Shown one piece after another: positions 9,640 to 55,464 of a stretch of DNA of 64,000 bases. The stretch comes from Mobula hypostoma (taxonomy: Eukaryota). The notes beneath the pieces were generated by a model. That model saw nothing but the letters and a program-made list of their open reading frames with translations, was not told the origin of the DNA and searched no databases. Each line of letters begins with the position of its first letter. Position 1 is the first letter of the stretch. Both the position numbers and the translations under genes were made by a program. The stretch covers positions 93,808,001 to 93,872,000 of the forward strand of contig NC_086097.1 in NCBI RefSeq assembly GCF_963921235.1. Reading direction: 5' to 3'.

Positions 9640-11170
9640 GTCATTTCTCTGGGACTGCAGAAGACATGAAGATACTGCTTAATCTCACCTCTTGCCTTTC
9701 TCAATAGCCCAGGGTATATCCCGTCGGCCCTGGGGACTTATCTGCCTTAATGTTAAGAGACGCAACATTACTCCTTCTTTATCTCTGAATGTCGTAGCAT
9801 TGTAGCATGCTCCACACAACTCCCTCTCCTCTACATCCTTGGGAAAAACTAAATCAAAGTACTCATTTAGGACCTCACCCCTGTCCTCTGTCTCCAAGCA
9901 CGTTACCTCTTTCATTTTTGAGTCCTACCTGCTTCCTAGTTATCCACTTGCTCTTGATGTATGTACAGAATTCCTTAGGATTCTCTTTAACTCTACTGCC
10001 AACGACTTTTCTTGGCCCCTCCTAGCTCTTCTAATTCCTTCTTGAGCTCTTTGCTGGCTTCTTTATAGTCCCCAAGAGTTCTGTTTGATTTTAGCTTCCT
10101 AAACCTCACATAAATTTCCTTTCTGTTCTTGACTAATTTCACCACCTCTCTCAACATCCAAAGTTCGTTTACCTTGCTATCTTATCCTTCCTTCTGACTG
10201 GAGCATACCTGTCCTGTACACTGTGCAGTTGGACTTTAGATACCTTCCACACGTCAGACGTGGACTTGCCCAAAAACAGCTGTTCCCAATGAACTCGCCC
10301 TGTTTCTGCCTAATTCTCCCATAACTTGTCCTGTTCCAATTTAGTACTCTCTCCCAAGGTCCATACTTATCCAAATCTATAGCTATCTTAAAACTTAAAA
10401 GTTATGATCACTGCTCTCTAATTGTTCTCTCATTGAGAGGTCAGTCAGCTGGCGAAGCCCATTACCCAACACCAGGTCCCGTTTGGCCCTTCCTTTTGTT
10501 GGACCTAACAAAATCTGCCCTGTCTAAACTGCTTGCAGTAAGGAGGTCGCAGTCTCTATTGGGGAAGTTGAAGTCACCCACTGCAACAACCCTGTTTTTT
10601 TATAGCTTTCACTAATCTGCTGGCATATCTGTTCCTCAATGTCCTAGTGGATACAGGGATACAGGGGGTGGTACCTGTAGTATAATCCCATCAGAGTGAT
10701 ACCTGTTCCTGAATATCCCAGTGGATACAGGGGGTGGAATCTGTACTATAATCCCATCAGAGTGGGATTATTATTTTTATTGTTTTTTGAGTTCTAACCC
10801 ACACAGACACAATAGGTGAGACCTGTTTTGTGCCCCTCTGAGTGCAACTGTGATATTGGCCCTGATTAGTAGTGCAACTCCTGCCCATCCCACCTTTAGC
10901 TCCTGCTTTCTCTTTTCTGGAACATTAAGCATCCATTCCTGTCCCTCTCTCAACCAAGGTTCTGTTATGGCCACTGCATCATAGTTCAGTGTACTGATCC
11001 AGGCTCTAAATTCATCAGCCTCATGCTTAATACACCTAGCATTAAAATATATACACTTCAACCAGCCCATCGCATTGTGTCTATTGTCTTGTTCCTACTG
11101 GTCATGACTTTCCTCTCAATCCCTCCACTTTCTGATTTGGTTCCCTTCATCCTGCCTAAGTAATTTAATT
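9640..11170 (-). mobile_element. Old degraded CR1 LINE fragment (endonuclease to early RT)
   Basis: Minus-strand remnants LKCIYFNARCIKHEADEFRAWIST, GEVLNEYFDLVF, homologous to the young CR1 at 48915-52809. Confidence 0.85.
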
Positions 11171-12813: not shown

Positions 12814-13307
12814 GTGAGTTGTGCCTCTGAGAGGCCACCTTTTTACTGCACCTGCGTCGACTGCCCGAACTTCCAAGTTTGCGGCATGCCCTTGCGCTCA
12901 GAGAGAGCTGTGTTTTCTTGCTGACGCTCAGGGTTGTGTGCGGATCAGCTGTTGCTCTGCATTGTGCCTTCATTAAAGCATCAGGGAGCAGCGGAAGCTG
13001 GGGACTGGAGCACCAGCATTGCTGCCCTGACTTGCGTGGTGTAGTGGTGTGAAAATCTGTCCTTTGTTCGACTTTGTTTAAGCGTTCTCTGGACTGACAT
13101 GAGTGCAGTGGGAGAACAGACCTGCAGTGGGAGAACAGACCAGGAACTCAGCACAGGGGAGAGAATTGTTGACTGTCGTAGTGGATTCTCACAGGGTCGC
13201 TGCTGTCCAGAAATGGAGGTGGGGGAGGAGGTAGCTTTATCTCTGTCGTGGTGTGTCTTGTTAATGACTCGGTGCAGAGGAATGGCTGACTCCCATGTAC
13301 AGACGGA

Positions 13308-13750
13308 AAGCCATGCTGATTATCCCTAATCAGATTATGTCTCCCCACATGTTCATAAATCCTGCCTCTCAGGATCTTCTCCAAAACTTGCCCACTACTG
13401 AAGTAAGACTCATTGGTCTATAACTTCCTAGCTCTATTCCCTTTCGTGAACAAGGGAACAACATTTGCAAACTTCCAATCCTCTGGTACTTCTCCTGTCC
13501 CTATTGATGATGCAAAGATCATCGCCAGAGGCTCAGCAATCTCCTCCCTCGCTTCCCGCAGTAGCCTGGGGTATTCCTCATCCCGTCCGGGTGACTTATC
13601 TAACTTAATACCTTTCAAAAGCTCCAGCACATCCTCTTTCTTAATGTCTATATATTCAAGCATTTCAGTCCATTGTAAGCCATCCCCACAATTCCTGAGG
13701 TCCTTTTCACTGGTGAATACTGAAGCTAAGCATTCATTAAGTACCTCTGC
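13308..13750 (-). mobile_element. CR1 LINE ORF2 fragment
   Basis: DKSPGRDEEYPRLLREAREEIAEPL..GEVPEDWKFANVVPLF. Confidence 0.9.
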
Positions 13751-36669: not shown

Positions 36670-38166
36670 TAAAACTCGTTAGATTCTGGACTAGTTCCTG
36701 AGGATTGGAGGGTGGCTAATGTAACCCCACTTTTTAAAAAAGGAGGGAGAGAGAAACCGGGGAATTATAGACCGGTTAGCCTAACGTCGGTGGTGGGGAA
36801 ACTGCTGGAGTCAGTTATCAAAGATGTGATAACAGCACATTTGGAAAGCGGTGAAATGATCGGACAAAGTCAGCATGGATTTGTGAAAGGAAAATCATGT
36901 CTGACGAATCTCATAGAACTTTTTGAGGATGTAACTAGTAGAGTGGATAGGGGAGAACCAGTGGATGTGGTATATTTGGATTTTCAAAAGGCTTTTGACA
37001 AGGTCCCACACAGGAGATTAGTGTGCAAACTTAAAGCACACAGTATTGGGGGTAAGGTATTGGTGTGGGTGGAGAATTGGTTAGCAGACAGGAAGCAAAG
37101 AGTGGGAATAAACGGGACCTTTTCAGAATGGCAGGCGGTGACTAGTGGGGTACCGCAAGGCTCAGTGCTGGGACCCCAGTTGTTTACAATATATATTAAT
37201 GACTTGGATGAGGGAATTAAATGCAGCATCTCCAAGTTTGCGGATGACACGAAGCTGGGTGGCAGTGTTAGCAGTGAGGAGGATGCTAAGAGGATGCAGG
37301 GTGACTTGGATAGGTTGGGTGAGTGGGCAAACTCATGGCAGATGCAATTTAATGTGGATAAATGTGAAGTTATCCACTTTGGTGGCAAAAATAGGAAAAC
37401 AGATTATTATCTGAATGGTGGCCGATTAGGAAAAGCGGAGGTGCAACGAGACCTGGGTGTCATTATACACCAGTCATTGAAAGTGGGCATGCAGGTACAG
37501 CAGGCGGTGAAAAAGGCGAATGGTATGCTGGCATTTATAGCAAGAGGATTCGAGTACAGGAGCAGGGAGGTACTACTGCAGTTGTACAAGGCCTTGGTGA
37601 GACCACACCTGGAGTATTGTGTGCAGTTTTGGTCCCCTAATCTGAGGAAAGACATCTTTGCCATAGAGAGAGTACAAAGAAGGTTCACCAGATTGATTCC
37701 TGGGATGGCAGGACTTTCATATGAAGAAAGACTGGATGAACTGGGCTTGTACTCGTTGGAATTTAGAACATTGAGGGGGGATCTGATTGAAACGTATAAG
37801 ATCCTAAAGGGATTGGACAGGCTAGATGCAGGAAGATTGTTCCCGATGTTGGGGAAGTCCAGAACGAGGGGTCACAGTTTGAGGATAGAGGGGAAGCCTT
37901 TTAGGACCGAGATGAGGAAAAACTTCTTCACACAGAGAGTGGTGAATCTGTGGAATTCTCTGCCACAGGAAACTGTTGAGGCCAGTTCATTGGCTATGTT
38001 TAAGAGGGAGTTAGATATGGCCCTTGTGGCTACAGGGGTCAGGGGGTATGGAGGGAAGGCTGGGGCGGGGTTCTGAGTTGGATGATCAGCCATGATCATA
38101 ATAAATGGCGGTGCAGGCTCGAAGGGCCGAATGGCCTACTCCTGCACCTATTTTCTATGTTTCTAT
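36670..38166 (+). mobile_element. Young 5'-truncated CR1/HER1-type LINE with an intact RT and C-terminal ORF (36712-38076)
   Basis: NYRPVSLTS, YLDFQKAFDKVPH, GVPQGSVLGP, FADD, RPHLEYCVQFWSP; 3' hairpin and (TTCTAT) tail. Confidence 0.95.
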
Positions 38167-40842: not shown

Positions 40843-43459
40843 TTAGAGGGCTCATCTACTGAGTCCTTATGGGTGGAGCTGAGAAACAGGAAAGGTATGG
40901 CCACATTAGTGGGATTGTATTACAGACCACCTAATAGTCAACGAGACTTGGAAGAGCAAATCTGCAGAGAGATAGCAGGCAACTGCAGGAAACATAAAGT
41001 TGTGGTGGTAGGGGATTTTAATTTTCCATACATTGATTGGGACTCCCATACTGTTAGGGGTCTAGATGGTTTAGAGTTTGTAAAATGTGTTCAGGAAAGT
41101 TTTCTAAATCAGTATATAGAGGGACCAACTAGAGGGGATGCAATATTGGATCTCCTGTTAGGAAACGAATTAGGGCAAGTGACAGAAGTCTGTGTAGGGG
41201 AGCACTTTGGTTCCAGTGATCATAACACCATTAGTTTCAATTTGATCATGGACAAGGATAGATCTGGTCCTAGGGTTGAGGTTCTGAACTGGAAGAAGGC
41301 CAAATTTGAAGAAATGAGAAAGGATCTAAAAAGCGTGGATTGGGACAGGTTGTTCTCTGGCAAGGATGTGATCGGTAGGTGGGAAGCCTTCAAAGGAGAA
41401 ATTTTGAGAGTGCAGAATTTGTATGTTCCTGTCAGGATTAAAGGCAAAGTGAATAGGAATAAGGAACCTTGGTTCTCAAGGGATATTGCAACTCTGATAA
41501 AGAAGAAGAGGGAGTTGTATGAAATGTATAGGAAACAGGGGGTAAATCAGGTGCTTGAGGAGTATAAGAAGTGCAAGAAAATACTTAAGAAAGAAATCAG
41601 GAGAGCAAAAAGAAGACATGAGGTTGCCTTGGCAGTCAAAGTGAAGGATAATCCAAAGAGCTTTTACAGGTATATTAAGAGCAAAAGGATTGTAAGGGAT
41701 AAAATTGGTCCTCTTGAAGATCAGAGTGGTCGGCTTTGTGCAGAACCAAAGGAAATGGGGGAGGTCTTAAATAGGTTTTTTGTGTCTGTATTTACTAAGG
41801 AAGCTGGCATGAAATCTATGGAATTGAGGGAATCAAGTAGTGAGACCATGGAAACTGTACAGATTGAAAAGGAGGAGGTACTTGCTGTCTTGAGGAAAAT
41901 TAAAGTGGATAAATCCCCGGGACCTGACAGGGTGTTCCCTCGGACCTTGAAGGAGACTAGTGTTGAAATTGCAGGGGCCCTGGCAGAAATATTTAAAATG
42001 TCGCTGTCTACGGGTGAAGTGCCGGAGGATTGGAGAGTGGCTCATGTTGTTCCGTTGTTTAAAAAAGGATCGAAAAGTAATCCGGGAAATTATAGGTCGG
42101 TGAGTTTAACGTCAGTAGTAGGTAAGTTATTGGAGGGAGTACTAAGAGACAGAATCTACAAGCATTTGGATAGACAGGGGCTTATTAGGGAGAGTCAACA
42201 TGGCTTTGTGCGTGGTAGGTCATGTTTGACCAATCTGTTGGAGTTTTTCGAGGAGGTTACCAGGAAAGTGGATGAAGGGAAGGCAGTGGATATTGTCTAT
42301 ATGGACTTCAGTAAGGCCTTTGACAAGGTCCCGCATGGGAGGTTAGTTAGAAAAATTCAGTCGCTAGGTATACATGGAGAGGTGGTAAATTGGTTTAGAC
42401 ATTGGCTCGATGGAAGAAGCCAGAGAGTGGTGGTAGAGAATTGCTTCTCTGAGTGGAGGCCTGTGACTACTGGTGTGCCACAGGGATCAGAGCTGGGTCC
42501 ATTGTTATTTGTCATCTATATCAATGATCTGGATGATAATGTGGTAAATTGGATCAGCAAGTTTGCTGATGATACAAAGATTGGAGGTTTTCAGAGCCTG
42601 CAGAGGGACTTGGACCAGCTGGAAAAATGGGCTGAAAAATGGCAGATGGAGTTTAATACTGACAAGTGTGAGGTATTGCACATTGGAAGGACAAACCAAG
42701 GTAGAACATACAGGGTTAATGGTAAGGCACTGAGGAGTGCAGTGGAACAGAGGGATCTGGGAATACAGATACAAAATTCTCTAAAAGTGTCATCACAGGT
42801 AGATAGGGTCGTAAAGAGAGCTTTTGGTACATTGGTCTTTATTAATCGAAGTATTGAGTATAAGAGCTGGAATGTTATGATGAGGTTGTATAAGGCATTG
42901 GTGAGGCCGAATCTGGAGTATTGTGTTCAGTTTTGGTCACCAAATTACAGGAAGGATATAAATAAGGTTGAAAGAGTGCAGAGAAGGTTTACAAGGATGT
43001 TGCCGGGACTTGAGAAACTCAGTTACAGAGAAAGGTTGAATAGGTTAGGACTTTATTCCCTGGAGCGTAGAAGAATGAGGGGAGATTTGATAGAGATATA
43101 TAAAATTATGATGGGTATAGATAGAATGAATGCAAGCAGGCTTTTTCCACTGAGGCAAGGGGAGAAAAAAACCAGAGGACATGGGTTAAGGGTGAAGGGG
43201 GAAAAGTTTAAAGGGAACATTCGGGGGGGCTTCTTCACACAGAGAGTGGTGGGAGTATGGAATGAGCTGCCAGACGAGGTGGTAAGTGCGGGTTCTTTTT
43301 TAACATTCAAGAATAAATTGGACAGATACATGGATGTGAGGTGTATGGAGGGATGTGGTCCGTGTGCAGGTCAGTGGGACGAGGCAGAAAATGGTTCAGC
43401 ACAGCCAAGAAGGGCCAAAGGGCCTGTTTCTGTGCTGTAGTTTCTATGGTTTCTATGGT
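40843..43459 (+). mobile_element. Young 5'-truncated CR1 LINE; ORF2 open over 855 codons (partial APE plus RT)
   Basis: YYRPPNS, VGDFNFP, GSSDHN, DFSKAFDKVPH, GVPQGS, FADD; (TTCTATGGT)2 tail; near-identical to 50166-52809. Confidence 0.97.
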
Positions 43460-43669
43460 ACACTGATTGGCTTTGACTGTGGCTGAGGACAATGGGGAAA
43501 TAAGCTGCCTACCTTCCTACATCACTGGCCGCTGGCAGTGTGCTTAATGATTGCCTGAAAGGTCTCAGTCCAACCCTTCACAGTCAGACGGCCCCCAGGT
43601 TGCCCTACCGGAGCCCACTGGACAACAATGTTTTTCAAAGGCTTTGCTTCCTCAGAAATTTTTTTGTTT

Positions 43670-48438: not shown

Positions 48439-48688
48439 CTTACGGCAAACCTGAATTCAACCCCATGTAAAATCTCAGTGAAAACCTCACCCCGAACGGA
48501 ATCCAGTCTTGTTCCAACATCTGTCAGAGCAATACACACCCAGAGAAAACGAAGCCTGGCTCTGGAGACACGGAAAGTATCTGTGGTGTCAGTAAAAGGA
48601 CAGTCTTCCTCAGCACTTCCCAGTCCAGCTGCATCGCCCAGTCCATCCATCAGAAAGTCCCAATCAGTCCATGACTTGATTCATGAAG
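48439..48688 (+). CDS. MAPKBP1: MAPKBP1 coding exon LTANLNSTPCKISVKTSPRTESS...SPSIRKSQSVHDLIHE
   Basis: ttttcctgcag|CTT ... G|gtaagg; phase 0 to 1; RKSQSVHDL matches MAPKBP1 QKAQSVHSL. Confidence 0.88.
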
Positions 48689-48914
48689 GTAAGGAAAAAG
48701 ATGATGCACCAAAACGACGAAAAACTTTCACTTGTTCCTGTCTACTGGGCTGTGCAAACGCCAGAAGTTTCGAATTGGACTCTTTCCAAACAAAGAATTA
48801 GTAAGAGAAAGATCTCCTATTCAAATGTGTCTCAGATTGTAGCCATCCTGACAACAGTGTGGGAATAATCAGTCAAATGGATGAAAGATGTGTTCTGTGC
48901 AATAAACTGAGCCC

Positions 48915-51900
48915 TTCTGAGCCCTCTGGTGTCCCTGACAACGACACCTGCAAAAAGTGCATCCAGCTGCAGCTCCTAACAAACGGCGTTAGGGAACTGG
49001 AGCAGGAGCTGGATGACCTGCAGATCATTCGGGAGAATGAGGAGATTATAGATAGTAGCTACAGGGAGGTAGTTACTCCAAAGGAGCAGAGGACAGGAAA
49101 TTGGGTCACTGTCAGGCGAGGGAAGGGGAAAGGGCAGGCAGAGCAGGGTTCCCCTGTGGCCATTCCCCTCAACAACAAGTATACCGCATTGGATACTGTT
49201 GGGGGGGATGACTTACCTGGGACAAGCTGCAGTAGCCGGATCTCTGGCACTGGGTCTGGCTCTGCAGTGCAGAAGGGAGGGTGGAAAAAGAGGAGAGCGG
49301 TAGTGATAGGGGACTCGATAGTTAGAGGTGCAGATAGGAGGTTCTGTGGTCGTGACAGAGAATTCAGGATTGTTTGTTGCCTCCCAGGTGCCAGGGTCAA
49401 GGATGTCTCTGATCGATTGCATGATATTCTGAAGTGGGAGGGTGACCAGCCAGATGTCGTGGTGCACATCGGTACCAATGACATAGCAAGGAAGAGTGAG
49501 GAGGTCCTGGAGAGTGAGTATAGAGAGCTTGGTAGGAAGTTGAAAAGCAGGACCTCAAGGGTGGTAATCTCAGGATTGCTACCTGTGCTACGTGCCAGTG
49601 AGGGTAGGAATAGGATGCTCTGGAGGATGAACAAGTGGCTGAGGAACTGGTGTAGGGGGCAGGGTTTCAGATTTCAGGATAATTGGGACCTCTTCTGGGG
49701 CAGGTGGGACCTGTACAAGAGAGACGGGTTACACTTGAACTACAGGGGGACCAATATCCTTTCAGGGAGGTTTGTTAGTGCTATTGGGGATGCTTTAAAC
49801 TAGATTTGCAGGGGGATGGGAACCAGAGTGCTAGAGCTGACAGTGTGGGTGGGGTGAAAATAAATGATGCTAAAAGTTCAAGCAAATCCGCTGATAGAAA
49901 GGTTGTGAGTGGTGGTAAAAATCTTCTGAGGTGTATATATTTCAATGCTAGGAGTATTGCGGGGAAGGCAGATGAGTTGAGGGCGTGGATTGACACGTGG
50001 AATTATGACGTTATAGCAATTAGTGAAACTTGGCTACAGGAAGGGCAGGACTGGCAGCTTAATATTCCAGGGTTCCGATGTTTCAGATGTGATCGAGGTA
50101 GAGGAATGAAAGGTGGGGGAGTAGCATTGCTTGTTAGGGAAAATATTACAGCAGTGCTCAGGCAGGACAGATTAGAGGGCTTGTCTACTGAGTCCTTATG
50201 GGTGGAGCTGACAAACAGGAAAGGTATGGCCACATTAGTGGGATTGTATTACAGACCACCCAATAGTCAACGAGACTTGGAAGAGCAAATCTGCAGAGAG
50301 ATAGCAGGCAACTGCAGGAAACATAAAGTTGTGGTGGTAGGGGATTTTAATTTTCCATATATTGATTGGGACTCCCATACTGTTAGGAGTCTAGATGGTT
50401 TAGAGTTTGTAAAATGTGTTCAGGAAAGTTTTCTAAATCAATATATAGAGGGACCAACTAGAGGGGATGCAATATTGGATCTCCTGTTAGGAAACGAGTT
50501 AGGACAAGTGACAGAAGTCTGTGTAAGGGAGCACTTTGGTTCCAGTGATCATAACACCATTAGTTTCAACTTGATCATGGACAAGGATAGATCTGGTCCT
50601 GGGGTTGAGGTTCTTAACTGGAAGAAGGCCAAATTTGAAGAAATGAGAAAGGATCTAAAAAGCGTGGATTGGGACAAGTTGTTCTCTGGCAAGGATGTGA
50701 TCGGTAGGTGGGAAGCCTTCAAAGGAGAAATTTTGAGAGTACAGAATTTGTATGTTCCTGTCAGGATTAAAGGCAAAGTGAATAGGAATAAGGAAACTTG
50801 GTTCTCAAGGGATATTGCAACTCTGATAAAGAAGAAGAGGGAGTTGTATGACATGTATAGGAAGCAGGGAGTAAATAAGGTGCTTGAGGAGTATAAGAAG
50901 TGCAAGAAAATACTTAAGAAAGAAATCAGGAGGGCTAAAAGAAGACATGAGGTTGCCTTGGCAGTCAAAGTGAAGGATAATCCAAAGAGCTTTTACAGGT
51001 ATATTAAGAGCAAAAGGATTGTAAGGGATAAAATTGGTCCTCTTGAAGATCAGAGTGGTCGGCTTTGTGCGGAACCAAAGGAAGTGGGGGAGATCTTAAA
51101 TAGGTTTTTTGCGTCTGTATTTACTAAGGAAACTGGCATGAAGTCTATGGAATTAAGGGAAACAAGTAGTGAGATCATGGAAACTGTACAGATCGAAAAG
51201 GAGGAGGTCCTTGCTGTCTTGAGGAAAATTAAAGTGGATAAATCCCCGGGACCTGACAGAGTGTTCCCTCGGACCTTGAAGGAGACTAGTGTTGAAATTG
51301 CGGGGGCCCTGACAGAAATATTTAAAATGTCGCTGTCTACAGGTGAGGTGTCGGAGGATTGGAGAGTGGCTCATGTTGTTCCGTTGTTTAAAAAAGGATC
51401 GAAAAGTAATCCGGGAAATTATAGGCCAGTAAGTTTAACGTCGGTAGTAGGTAAGTTATTGGAGGGAGTACTATGAGACAGAATCTACAAGCATTTGGAT
51501 AGACAGGGACTTATTAGGGAGAGTCAACATGGCTTTGTGCGTGGTAGGTCACGTTTGACCAATCTGTTGGAGTTTTTCGAGGAGGTTACCGGGAAAGTAG
51601 ATAAAAGGAAGGCAGTGGATATTGTCTACATGGACTTCAGTAAGGCCTTTGACAAGGTCCCGCATGGGAGGTTAGTTAGGAAAATTCAGTCGCTAGGTAT
51701 ATATGGAGAGGTGGTAAATTGGATTAGACATTGGCTCAATGGAAGAAGCCAAAGAGTGGTAGTAAAGAATTGCTTCTCCGAGTGGAGGCCTGTGACTAGT
51801 GGTGTGCCACAGGGATCAGTGCTGGGTCCATTGTTATTTGTCATCTATATCAATGATCTGGATGATAATGTGGTTAATTGGATCAGCAAATTTGCTGATG

Positions 51901-52809
51901 ATACAAAGATTAGAGGTGTAGTAGGCAGTGAGGAAGGTTTTCAGAGCCTGCAGAGGGACTTGGACCAGCTAGAAAAATGGGCTGAAAAATGGCAGATGGA
52001 GTTTAATATAGACAAGTGTGAGGTATTGCACGTTGGAAGGACAAACCAAGGTAGAACATACAGGGTTAATGGTAAGGCACTGAGGAGTACAGTGGAACAG
52101 AGGGATCTGGGAATACAGATACAAAATTTCCTAAAAGTGGTGTCACAGGTAGATAGGGTCGTAAAGAGAGCTTTTGGTACATTGGCCTTTATTAATCAAA
52201 GTATTGAGTATAAGAGCTGGAATGTTATGATGAGGTTGTATAAGGCATTGGTGAGGCCGAATTTGGAGTATTGTGTTCAGTTTTGGTCACCAAATTACAG
52301 GAAGGATATTAATAAAGTTGAAAGAGTGCAGAGAAGGTTTACAAGGATGTTGCCGGGACTTGAGAAACTCAGTTACAAAGAAAGATTGAATAGGTTAGGA
52401 CTTTATTCCCTGGAGCGTAGAAGAATGAGGGGAGATTTGATAGGGGTATATAAAATTATGATGGGTATAGATAGAGTGAATGCAAGCAGGCTTTTTCCAC
52501 TGAGGCAAGGGGAGAAAAAAACCAGAGGACATGGGTTAAGGGTGAGGGGGGAAAAGTTTAAAGGGAACATTAGTGGGGGCTTCTTCACACAGAGAGTGGT
52601 GGGAGTATGGAATGAGCTGCCAGACGAGGTGGTAAGTGCGGGTTCTTTTTTAACATTTAAGAATAAATTGGACAGATACATGTATGGGAGGTGTATGGAG
52701 GGATATGGTCCGTGTGCAGGTCAGTGGGACTAAGCAGAAAATGGTTCGGCACAGCCAAGAAGGGCCAAAAGGCCTGTTTCTGTGCTGTAGTTTCTATGGT
52801 TTCTATGGT
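48915..52809 (+). mobile_element. Near full-length young CR1 LINE: ORF1 (coiled coil plus SGNH/GDSL esterase, stop 49801-49803) and ORF2 (APE plus RT) with a single internal TGA at 51474
   Basis: ORF1 motifs VIGDSIVR, PGARV, HIGTND, DGLHLN; ORF2 motifs CIYFNARSI, ISETWL, GDFN, SDH, FADD; (TTCTATGGT)2 tail. Confidence 0.96.
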
Positions 52810-52849: not shown

Positions 52850-53060
52850 GCCACACACACAAAATGCTGGAGGAACTCAGCAGGCCAGGCAGCATCTATG
52901 GAGAAAAGTACAGTCGATGTTTCGGGCCGAGACCCCGATGAGGGGTCTCAGCCCAAAATGTCGACAGTTCACTCTTTTCCACAGATGCTACCTAGCCCGC
53001 TGAGTTCCTCCAGCATTTTGTGTGTGTGGCATTTGATTTCCAGCATCTGCGGATTTTCTC
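52850..53060. mobile_element. Penelope-derived fold-back element forming a hairpin of about 180 bp
   Basis: GCCACACACACAAAATGCTGGAGGAACTCAGC (52850-52881) is the exact reverse complement of 52999-53030. Confidence 0.8.
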
Positions 53061-53620
53061 GGGTTAGTTCTGAAGCCTAATTGATGCTAAAGTTCAGTCA
53101 CCTCTGCATTTCAGCTTTAAACACAGGTTTAAGGCATTGGGGGAAGAGTCATCTCAACAACAGAAGTGTGGTGGAATGGACCCTAATGTCCCAAAGACTG
53201 CTGATAGAGCAAATGACAGACAGTAGGTTTAAATACAAAGAGGAAGTGCCAGCAGGTGAGCTCCTCAACAAATGAAGCGAATCACACTGATGCAGACCTG
53301 TCTCTACAGGAAGTGTTGTGTCTCTCTGTGTCCTAGGTCCTGCAGCGATGACCTCTCCCTGTAGAGATCCCAGTCCTCACAGGGAAATTGTGTGTGATGA
53401 CTATTTTGTGCTGATAAGAATCTAATGGTATTGAGGCCCCACTGTTCCCAGGCTGAGCACAATCTCTGTCGTGGGGGAGAGCCTGGCTAATACTACAGCA
53501 TCACGATGATGAGGCCTCTGCACAGCTCAAGAGAGCAGCAGTGATGAGATTGATTGAGTGACCCAGCCCTCGTGAACCTGCTTTTTGATTAGCTCTTACT
53601 TTTGTCTTTGTCCTGTTTAG

Positions 53621-54583
53621 TTTGCATAACCAATACAACGCCTGCTGCGGTCACAACTGCAAAGCTGTGCCCCCACTCAGTGGCCGCCCCTGAGAAGGAC
53701 GCCAGAACGAGCCAGCGAAGGACCACACCCCCTGGGTCCAGCAAAGTGGACGTCCCGTCATTACCACTGGCAAAGGAAAGCGCTCAGGGAAAGACCATGA
53801 AACAGAAATCCTACATGAACCCCACCACCAGCTCCATAGCCAAAATGTCCCGCAGCGTTTCAGTGGGAGACAGCCTGAACCTCACTGGGAATGGCGAGGA
53901 TCCATCGATTGTGGAAAGCAGTGCCAACGGTCAACCTCTGGAATTGTCGCCCAAGTCTTCGCCTTTAATTAACACGGACATAGTGACTGAAATCTCCCAC
54001 AAACAGGAAATGACAAAACAGAACTGGAGAGAGACTGCAAGCTCCAAGCCTTTGTTGCAGCAGTCTGCAAGTTCAGCAGTGTCCCCTACTAATAACTCTC
54101 AGCCTAAGCTAAACCTTGGCACAAGGGCCAACTTGTTCCTCGATCTGCCCAAGCCGCTGCCTGACAAACCTTCCTTGGCTTCTTTCTCACCACCCATCAA
54201 GTTGAAGGCTTCATGTCTATCAGAGTGCATCCGACTGCCAGATTTACCGGGAGGAACAAAATGGAGCTCTTTGGCAGGCAATGTGCCCGACACACACAGG
54301 GAAATCCAGGAGAAGAAGGGCGACACTGCTCCCACACCTGGACAGGAGGTGGCTACTCCCTCAACTCCATGGGCCTTAGCCCAAAGTCCCCAGGAGACAC
54401 AGGGAGTTAAATCTCGTCAGCCAGCAGCTTCCCATTGTCCACCTGCATCCAGGTTTGGCAGACTGCAGAAAGAACCCTCGGACTCTTCACCCAGATTTCC
54501 AGCCGCAAGTGGCCAGGCTGTAGGTATAGCCACAGCAGTAACCCACCCTTCGTTATCTGAAAAATCCATTCCAAAGGATGCAG
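53621..54583 (+). CDS. MAPKBP1: MAPKBP1 large coding exon (963 nt) including KSYMNPTTSSIAKMSRSVSVGDSL and RANLFLDLPKPLPDKPSLASFSP
   Basis: tcctgtttag|TT ... G|gtatga; phase 1 to 1; motifs match MAPKBP1 SYQNPTTSSMAKISRSISVGENL and RAHLVLDIPKPLPDRPTLAAFSP. Confidence 0.94.
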
Positions 54584-55464
54584 GTATGAATGGAGTCCCA
54601 GCTTCTCCCTCCTCCACTCCAGTCTTGTTCTGTTTCCTTTGCTTTTATTTCCGTGATGTACTAGATTGTGGCGTGTGTCCACTGCTGAACACGCTGCTCT
54701 AGAACCCTTCTCACTCCAGTTTCCTCTCACTCCCCAACGATTGTGGGTTAATTGGCTCCATGGTGTGGGTGAGCAATGGAATCCAGATGCTGTTGATGGG
54801 AATGTGTAAAGTGGTAAGAGTGAATAGAGTCTTGATGGTTAGCATGGACTTGATGGGCTGAAGGGCCTGTTCCTATGATATTCACTGATGCTTCCGCCTG
54901 CCTCATTCCTCGTTTGCTTTATCCTAGTTATCTTGCAAATGACGTTTCCAAGTGAAAGCACCGATTATTTTCTCCCCTGCTCCTTTGTTCGTTCTCCTTC
55001 TTCTGCCTCGCACCGTTGGGCTACTGTAGTCAGCTAGGTGCTCCAGGGCATCCCCTCCTCTGGCACTCCCTCCGATCCCGTGCCTCGTGCAGGGAGCACT
55101 GGTCGGATGGAGCTCAGTGACTCGCTGTGAGGGTCAATCCCATCCTGAGGCATGGTGCTGCAGCCCTGCTAACTCTTAACAGCGCGGGACCTGCACCACA
55201 CCTTAGCTTTCTTACTGTCAGCAAACTAAGTGTTTTACATGCCTGTCACCACACGGATTAGTGGCAATAAGCCACTCGGCCCCAGCTGCCTGCTCTGCCA
55301 GTTAATGGGATTGTGGCCGTTCTGGTTGTAGGCTCTGTTCCTTCAAACCTCGGTACCCTTTCCTCCCCTTGCCTTCAAGAATCTACCTTAAAAATAGACA
55401 GACATTCACTTCACCACTGCCCAGAGGGAGACTCAAAAGTTTAAGACTCAGGAAATAGACTCAA

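Follow-up and report, generated by a model that had tools for sequence, protein, structure and literature searches.

A conserved slippery heptamer at the ORF1/ORF2 junction suggests programmed -1 frameshifting in esterase-type CR1 retrotransposons

Programmed -1 ribosomal frameshifting in eukaryotes takes place on heptamers of the consensus X_XXY_YYZ, where GUU is tolerated as the first triplet, and canonical signals need in addition a stem-loop or pseudoknot 5-9 nt downstream (PMC3542737). For long interspersed nuclear elements (LINEs), the available review passages treat translation of the second open reading frame (ORF2) as reinitiation (PMC5972666, PMC5009743), and for the LINEs of Paramecium a +1 shift or reinitiation has been suggested (PMC5405496). 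CR1, the dominant retrotransposon group of most vertebrates (PMC13343379), has two ORFs, which are described without a translation mechanism in the passages at hand of two further articles (PMC11835228, PMC4120745). Here we analyse a near-full-length CR1-type LINE at 48877-52809 (+) in a window of 64,000 nt from the ray Mobula hypostoma (NC_086097.1, positions 93,808,001 to 93,872,000, forward strand); all coordinates below refer to this window. A preliminary description of the same DNA had proposed that the slippery heptamer T TTA AAC at the end of ORF1 links it to an ORF2 in the -1 frame.

Comparison with related elements strongly supports this proposal at the level of sequence. We consider it probable (roughly 78%) that CR1 LINEs with an esterase ORF1 express ORF2 mainly by programmed -1 frameshifting, which would give a fusion of ORF1 protein (ORF1p) with the endonuclease (EN) and the reverse transcriptase (RT). 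The junction of the window copy and its surroundings comprise:

48877-49803 (+): ORF1, 308 amino acids counted from the first ATG, with CxxC...CxxC, a coiled-coil-like segment and an SGNH esterase, ending in ...ALN*
49794-49800 (+): slippery heptamer T TTA AAC in the ORF1 register (GCT TTA AAC), kept in 14/14 homologous junctions
49801-49803 (+): ORF1 stop codon TAG, directly 3' of the heptamer
49800-49931 (+): variable linker, open in the -1 frame and free of ATG in the window copy
49806-49808 (+): ORF2-frame codon TTG at a distance of 2 nt from the stop, replaced by ATG in four bird-like loci; candidate restart site if ORF2 were made by reinitiation
49811-49820 (+): G5 run and a second short G run, the G5 being conserved 10 nt after the heptamer; candidate stimulator
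49932-50552 (+): APE-type endonuclease (PF03372, E 6e-18) with CIYFNARS at 49932 and ISETWL at 50019; the first in-frame ATG of ORF2 (50106) lies inside it
11160-11169 (-): decayed homologue of heptamer plus stop in an old CR1 copy, from local alignment to 49760-49960

Read in the -1 frame, the junction is TTT AAA CTA GAT TTG CAG, and this frame opens at 49779 after a TAG at 49776-49778. The first in-frame ATG of ORF2 is codon 110 counted from 49779 and stands downstream of both endonuclease motifs. The junction coordinates, the registers, the -1 frame and the position of this ATG had all been given in the preliminary description; they were re-checked and are correct. The heptamer fits the eukaryotic consensus and does so in the zero-frame register. 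The same U UUA AAC is the slippery site of coronaviruses. Only one other in-register X XXY YYZ is found in ORF1 (G GGT TTC at 49662), TTTAAAC followed by TAG or TAA occurs a single time in the window, counting both strands, and the TTG at 49806 is the sole near-cognate codon adjoining the ORF1 stop. The earlier caveat that the old CR1 copy on the minus strand has an ATG ahead of its endonuclease motif stands, as this ATG (11070-11068) is real; the copy is heavily decayed, and its junction (11169-11160) is a decayed form of the same motif.

Related loci were searched in metagenome contigs with patterns taken from the middle of the esterase and not from the junction, and 40 loci were obtained. 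A scan of metagenome contigs with a single protein confirmed none of 373 candidate stretches, and a scan of genome contigs returned 21 weak bacterial SGNH matches (E 2e-9 or weaker), which were not used. A homologous junction is present in 14 of the 40 loci. The remaining 26 were set aside: in 22 the sequence breaks off ahead of the junction, L004 reaches only the second base of the heptamer (compatible, uncounted), L038 has no match through to the C-terminus, L035 is bacterial-like, and L034, a decayed L2-like element, lacks the motif. All 14 junctions carry the heptamer in the register of ORF1, 13 as TTTAAAC and one as GTTAAAC. In 12 of them the stop follows the heptamer directly (10 TAG, 1 TGA, 1 TAA). 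Between the heptamer and the first endonuclease motif, which starts 31-86 codons away, the -1 frame stays open in the window copy and in the seven loci with intact linkers.

The mutual ORF1 identity of the junction loci is 22-79%, and about five lineages are separated at less than 45% identity, namely the window, L001, L002 and two bird-like groups. The C-terminus of L001 matches a cluster containing sturgeon members, and that of one bird-like group matches a turaco protein. Given a terminal leucine and asparagine and the codon usage of the elements themselves, T|TTA|AAC would be expected with a probability of about 0.01 in each lineage; it is present in these five or so lineages, in one of them with G for the first T. 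A codon control with the window and ten loci gave the same picture. In 17 of 20 conserved amino-acid columns the codon varies, and only the terminal Leu (TTA, 11/11), the terminal Asn (AAC, 11/11) and one Cys (TGC, 9/9) have a fixed codon, while elsewhere in these ORF1s TTA makes up 9.6% of the Leu codons and AAC 41% of the Asn codons. In addition, the codon before TTA ends in T in 14 of 15 junctions, the residue there being A, H, C or S. This pattern indicates that the heptamer site is under constraint at the nucleotide level, exceeding what the protein needs. As a separate observation, the catalytic D-x-x-H of the bird-like ORF1s (L005-L012, L017, L031 and protein P0231) is often degenerate (DGVQL, DGCSL, GTRL), with the terminal LN and its codons intact.

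The C-termini of esterase proteins were examined in a set of 242 sequences, 180 of which reach the C-terminus. LN* stands at the expected place in 95 of these 180. A residue without a U-ending codon (E, K, Q, M or W) precedes LN in one of these 95 proteins, while positions -4 to -12 have such a residue in 153 of 855 cases (Fisher p 6e-7, uncorrected for kinship). Named proteins with this end come from rays, sharks, the coelacanth, sturgeon, frogs, turtles, a snake, a monitor lizard and a turaco. Clustering at 50% identity left 150 representatives, 114 of them usable for the C-terminal tripeptide; a tripeptide fitting X XXA AAC is terminal in 60 (49 LN, 9 GN, 2 KN), where about one is expected. 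The terminal GN always follows Q (9/9), in agreement with the residues that G GGA AAC requires, and LN is not once preceded by Q. At the protein level the QGN ends fit G GGA AAC and the KN ends A AAA AAC, and ends in FF or FL are compatible with U UUU UUN (no background comparison). Some of the esterases ending in GN or KN may belong to Penelope- or RTEX-type elements instead of CR1; DNA for these groups was sought in viral contigs, plasmids and phages, and none was found there.

In a quick esterase tree (116 rows, no bootstrap) one clade of 23 rows with 96% support mixes QGN*, SKN*, LN* and FF/FL ends. The vertebrate clade ends in LN in 36 of 43 rows, and the ZfL2-1-like clade in LN, GN or KN in 0 of 11. 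The solved L2-type esterase likewise ends without LN, and therefore the esterase fold does not need it. In the decayed L2-like locus L034 the heptamer is missing at 735-745, and an ATG two bases before the TGA at the ORF1 end gives the arrangement AUG-nn-UGA that is typical of reinitiation. As far as one decayed example can indicate, the route to ORF2 may not be the same in L2-type as in CR1-type esterase elements.

Longer fused proteins were searched as well, with four matches. One of them, P0100, is a single gene model from a ray in which ORF1 runs on in the -1 frame (...GFKL...), and so is P0028, a protein found separately. Both models corroborate the register for further families and, as they may be decayed copies, were not counted as functional fusions. 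P0102 and P0103 appear chimeric or internally deleted. The group to which these two belong, ending in ...RYLN*, shows by eye an apparent SH3-like segment upstream of the esterase. Two vertebrate-like CR1 proteins (P0010 and P0248) are filed under Pseudomonas aeruginosa and Carnobacterium maltaromaticum on contigs of 3-4 kb, and these bacterial labels are probably contamination.

Closer relatives were obtained by aligning the contigs of two public runs to 49640-50160 at 80% likeness (13,452 and 9,430 records); from two runs of raw reads (X21 and X22) only 2 and 0 reads aligned, which is uninformative. Among the best 40 of 83 variant rows none falls within 49794-49802, and variation is seen at 49788, 49791, 49793 and 49803-49807, where the variant at 49803 preserves a stop. 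The weakest of these rows have a share of about 14%, and further heptamer variants are probably rarer than that. Precisely at 49794 the alignments of 353 and 300 divergent contigs begin in the two runs; many end at 49830-49835, and the depth is maximal at 49802-49819. The junction is therefore a conserved island between divergent flanks. Four variants at 49803, 49804, 49805 and 49807 have similar depth (13-17%) in both runs; if they co-occur, they probably mark a minority subfamily of close relatives with a TAATG stop-start and the heptamer kept.

In the proposed mechanism most ribosomes would stop at the TAG of ORF1 and release ORF1p (...LN), and a minority would slip one base back with tRNA-Leu and tRNA-Asn on UUA AAC and resume at CUA. 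The product would be an ORF1p-linker-EN-RT fusion of about 1285 amino acids in an unbroken copy, with the junction ...ALN|LDLQGDG.... In this respect the junction peptide of the preliminary description (...L/F-K-L-D-L-Q) has to be replaced, as tandem slippage gives ...D-A-L-N|L-D-L-Q-G-D-G (mechanism in PMC3542737). The ratio of the fusion would be low and fixed, with free ORF1p in excess, and the fusion could hold the enzyme on ORF1p particles in the manner of Gag-Pol. Speculatively, subfamilies that have an ATG next to the stop may also yield free ORF2p by reinitiation.

The downstream region was searched for a stimulator. G5 is found in 12 of 12 loci with enough sequence, with a spacer of 10 nt in ten, 9 nt in one and 7 nt in one, whereas G5 starts at only 12 of 3921 positions in the window element. 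The G runs seen earlier are present in the window copy; the third of them (GGG, 49847-49849) is private to it, as position 49849 reads C in about 100% of the depth in both contig runs, and four conserved foldable G runs are thus lacking. The suggested stimulation by a G-quadruplex or stem was not borne out: a quadruplex is predicted in 2 of 13 junctions and not in the window copy, the window copy folds no better than its shuffles, and the z values of the 13 junctions lie between -1.6 and +1.4. When partners for pairing with the G run were sought up to 400 nt downstream, 0 of 12 sequences had one better than 95% of the base-shuffled controls, and upstream 2 of 12 did; this comparison, by energies only, was the one test that probed pseudoknots. 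Rfam has no match for the junction at E up to 1. By its sequence the junction appears to work like a -1 frameshift signal outside the canonical structure-stimulated class. The stimulator would, speculatively, most likely be the G run itself, through a bound protein or a pause aided by the adjoining stop, and not a local stem.

Several findings weigh against frameshifting as the main route to ORF2. No stem-loop or pseudoknot was detected 5-9 nt downstream, nor a shared stable fold or a conserved quadruplex. The stop is missing in 2 of 14 loci, and many loci are related bird-like copies, so that the count of independent lineages is about five and not 14. Heptamer variants below about 14% in the close relatives are possible, as the statement on variants covers the best 40 of the 83 rows. 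At the protein level, one protein ends in ELN, 54 of 114 representatives have no fitting terminal tripeptide, the search profile was made from LN-ending proteins and inflates the LN counts (not those of GN and KN), and the GN and KN evidence comes from proteins alone, with codons, frame and element type unproven. Finally, 6 of the 8 sequences whose linker is intact have an in-frame ATG ahead of the endonuclease motif: L003, L007, L008 and L012, all bird-like, have it 2 nt after the stop, and L002 and L011 further down the linker. TAATG is found in L029 and, if the four variants co-occur, in 13-17% of the close-relative depth. The earlier term 'AUG-less ORF2' holds for the majority form of the window family and for L001, neither of which has an in-frame ATG before the first endonuclease motif, and not for CR1s in general.

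These start codons are what would be expected if ORF2 were made by termination-reinitiation alone, with ribosomes ending at the TAG and restarting in the -1 frame beside the stop (at ATG, at TTG or GTG, or at any codon), and with heptamer and G run forming a restart signal that resembles a slip site. For SART1 (UAAUG) reinitiation is documented, and for mammalian L1 it has been proposed (PMC5972666, PMC5009743). The open linker fits it equally well, TTG or GTG occupies the restart codon in the window, L005 and L006, an ATG adjoins or overlaps the stop in 5 of 14 loci, and an L1-type AUG-independent restart is compatible with the loci that have none. However, the codon at the restart place varies (ATG, GTG, TTG, TCG, TGG, AGG, GCG) and the heptamer does not, and reinitiation predicts neither an exact in-register X XXY YYZ nor swaps to other heptamer-compatible ends. 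UGGGA, motif 1 of the termination upstream ribosome-binding site (TURBS), was found upstream at scattered distances in 8 of 15 junctions, with none within 110 nt in the other 7. We regard reinitiation as the only route to be unlikely; in the ATG-bearing subfamilies both routes may operate.

The conserved island could alternatively be an RNA or DNA signal apart from decoding, for instance one for splicing (a 3' acceptor TTTGCAG|G, 49805-49811), for packaging or RT binding, or for the start of a subgenomic RNA, with ORF2 made from another transcript. An acceptor-like TTTGCAG|G is indeed present in the window, and the conservation continues past the heptamer as far as about 49830 and no fold accounts for it, but an upstream pyrimidine tract is missing, the acceptor context is lost in relatives, and the motif is locked to the codon register and stop of ORF1 even where the length of the preceding tail varies, which makes this explanation very improbable. 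Even less credible is a need of ORF1p for a C-terminal Leu-Asn, with the nucleotides inherited by chance. Although the terminal Asn is invariant in 44 aligned ORF1s, such a need leaves unexplained why TTA and AAC do not vary, why the wobble position ahead of them holds a T and why the G5 keeps its spacing; L2-type esterases do without LN, and KN stands internally, ahead of a short tail, in 8 proteins of one group. The codon control largely refutes it. Programmed -1 frameshifting thus stays the preferred reading. A wider version of it is possible, though doubtful: an ancient Gag-Pol-like -1 frameshift in the esterase-ORF1 CR1s of jawed vertebrates, in which a G run 10 nt downstream would be recognised by a protein (a G-run binder of the host, or ORF1p as feedback) as a G-rich counterpart of the signal used by the virus behind porcine reproductive and respiratory syndrome (PRRSV), and in which a cassette swapped between U UUA AAC, G GGA AAC and A AAA AAC would move between retroelement lineages.

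The rest of the element comprises:

51483-52055 (+): reverse transcriptase domain (PF00078, E 3.6e-27); ORF2 ends at 52733
51474-51476 (+): premature stop in ORF2, a sense codon at the same place in the sister copy 40843-43460
52790-52809 (+): 3' tail of two 9-nt repeats, also present in the sister copy

The window copy is dead because of the premature stop, and therefore the question of its translation concerns the family and not this copy. The esterase of ORF1 was assigned by Pfam PF13472 (E 1.6e-13, 49303-49749), and ORF1 matches PDB 4c1b (E 8e-30). The 3' end of both young copies consists of short tandem repeats without poly(A), as in CR1, and in the esterase tree the close homologues of the window ORF1 fall among ORF1s of birds and reptiles and outside the ZfL2-1-like clade; the putative placement in CR1 instead of L2 comes from this esterase tree. 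The closest named relatives of the window ORF1 are rays (Hemitrygon, Mobula, Hypanus). The length of ORF1 is counted from its first ATG, which does not fix the true 5' end of the element: at its N-terminus (48877-48940) the CxxC-x16-CxxC spacing is kept and the MWE motif of the homologues is missing, and this part may be a variant 5' end or partly flanking DNA. A target-site duplication was looked for at the window copy and none was found.

The sister copy at 40843-43460 (+) is 95.6% identical, is 5'-truncated within the endonuclease and has the same 3' tail, without the junction. Older CR1-like ORF2 fragments lie at 36676-38064 (+), 13307-13750 (-) and 9832-11061 (-), with smaller pieces besides, at 28-69% amino-acid identity to the window ORF2. 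Ser/Pro-rich, exon-like coding stretches stand on either side of the CR1 (48441-48688 and 53593-54702, both +), with an ag at about 48440 and a gtaagg at about 48689; their motifs presumably recall the C-terminal part of MAPKBP1/WDR62-type proteins, for which an Atlas look-up gave no usable match. If these stretches are exons of such a gene, the CR1 would lie in sense orientation within an intron. A short repeat-like element at 52851-53050, 3' of the LINE tail, resembles, as we assume, a short interspersed nuclear element (SINE) of cartilaginous fishes.

No description of a CR1 slip site was found in the open literature; older CR1 descriptions, survey supplements and Repbase comments fall outside this scope, and a prior mention is quite possible. 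In the passages covered, the word 'frameshift' is absent from the 2026 survey of the CR1 group (PMC13343379), from PMC8665684 and from PMC2734521, where 'frame-shift' denotes a mutation, and CR1 is unmentioned in the first 300,000 of the 449,034 characters of a frameshifting review (PMC5009743). If the frameshift is real, the CR1 enzyme would be a fusion to ORF1p made at a set ratio, and the annotation of intact CR1s and their ORF2 proteins would change, as ATG-based calls can lose the first endonuclease motifs. A structure-free -1 signal dependent on a G run would also be a new kind of stimulator in animal cells, and the junction is a short, defined element that is easily tested by a reporter.

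Compared with known systems, the CR1 junction resembles the -1 signals of retroviral gag-pol and nidovirus ORF1a/1b in that an in-register consensus heptamer ends a structural ORF and the polymerase ORF lies in the -1 frame (PMC3542737). It differs from them in its host, a non-LTR retrotransposon, and in having G5 at 10 nt where no stem or pseudoknot was found at 5-9 nt. The -2/-1 frameshift in nsp2 of PRRSV is similar in that it uses no RNA structure and has a short motif rich in a single base, set off by a spacer of 10 nt; spacers of 9-11 nt are functional there (PMC4937337). That motif, however, is C-rich, is bound by PCBP and nsp1beta and needs the viral protein, whereas the CR1 motif is G-rich; the likeness is an analogy only, and protein binding to the CR1 G run is speculation.

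Among retroelements, canonical CR1s with a type IV (esterase) ORF1, with ZfL2-1 as their L2 counterpart, share the esterase/APE/RT layout and the short-repeat 3' tail (PMC4120745, PMC13343379, as far as the passages at hand go, in which the translation of ORF2 is not addressed), and the L2-type esterase clade of ZfL2-1 is set apart from CR1 by its ends, 0 of 11 of which are LN, GN or KN. Penelope-like elements can have an ORF1 split by a frameshift with a pseudoknot (PMC8557442), and some carry the same esterase family (PMC3905857); they have a GIY-YIG endonuclease, unlike CR1 with its APE type. SART1 and mammalian L1 are likewise translated from a bicistronic LINE RNA, and some CR1 subfamilies share with them a TAATG or an ATG 2 nt after the stop. 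In the passages covered no slippery heptamer is described for either of them (PMC5972666, PMC5009743), whereas CR1 keeps the heptamer and not the start codon. A further case is that of TRE5-A and TRE3-A of Dictyostelium, APE-type non-LTR elements for which a -1 frameshift is stated to be required for ORF2 (PMC5911963); they differ from CR1 in LINE group, host and ORF1, and the comparison is with a statement in a figure legend. A -1 shift in LINEs has thus been stated before for the TRE elements, and what appears to be new here is the conserved putative slip site in CR1.

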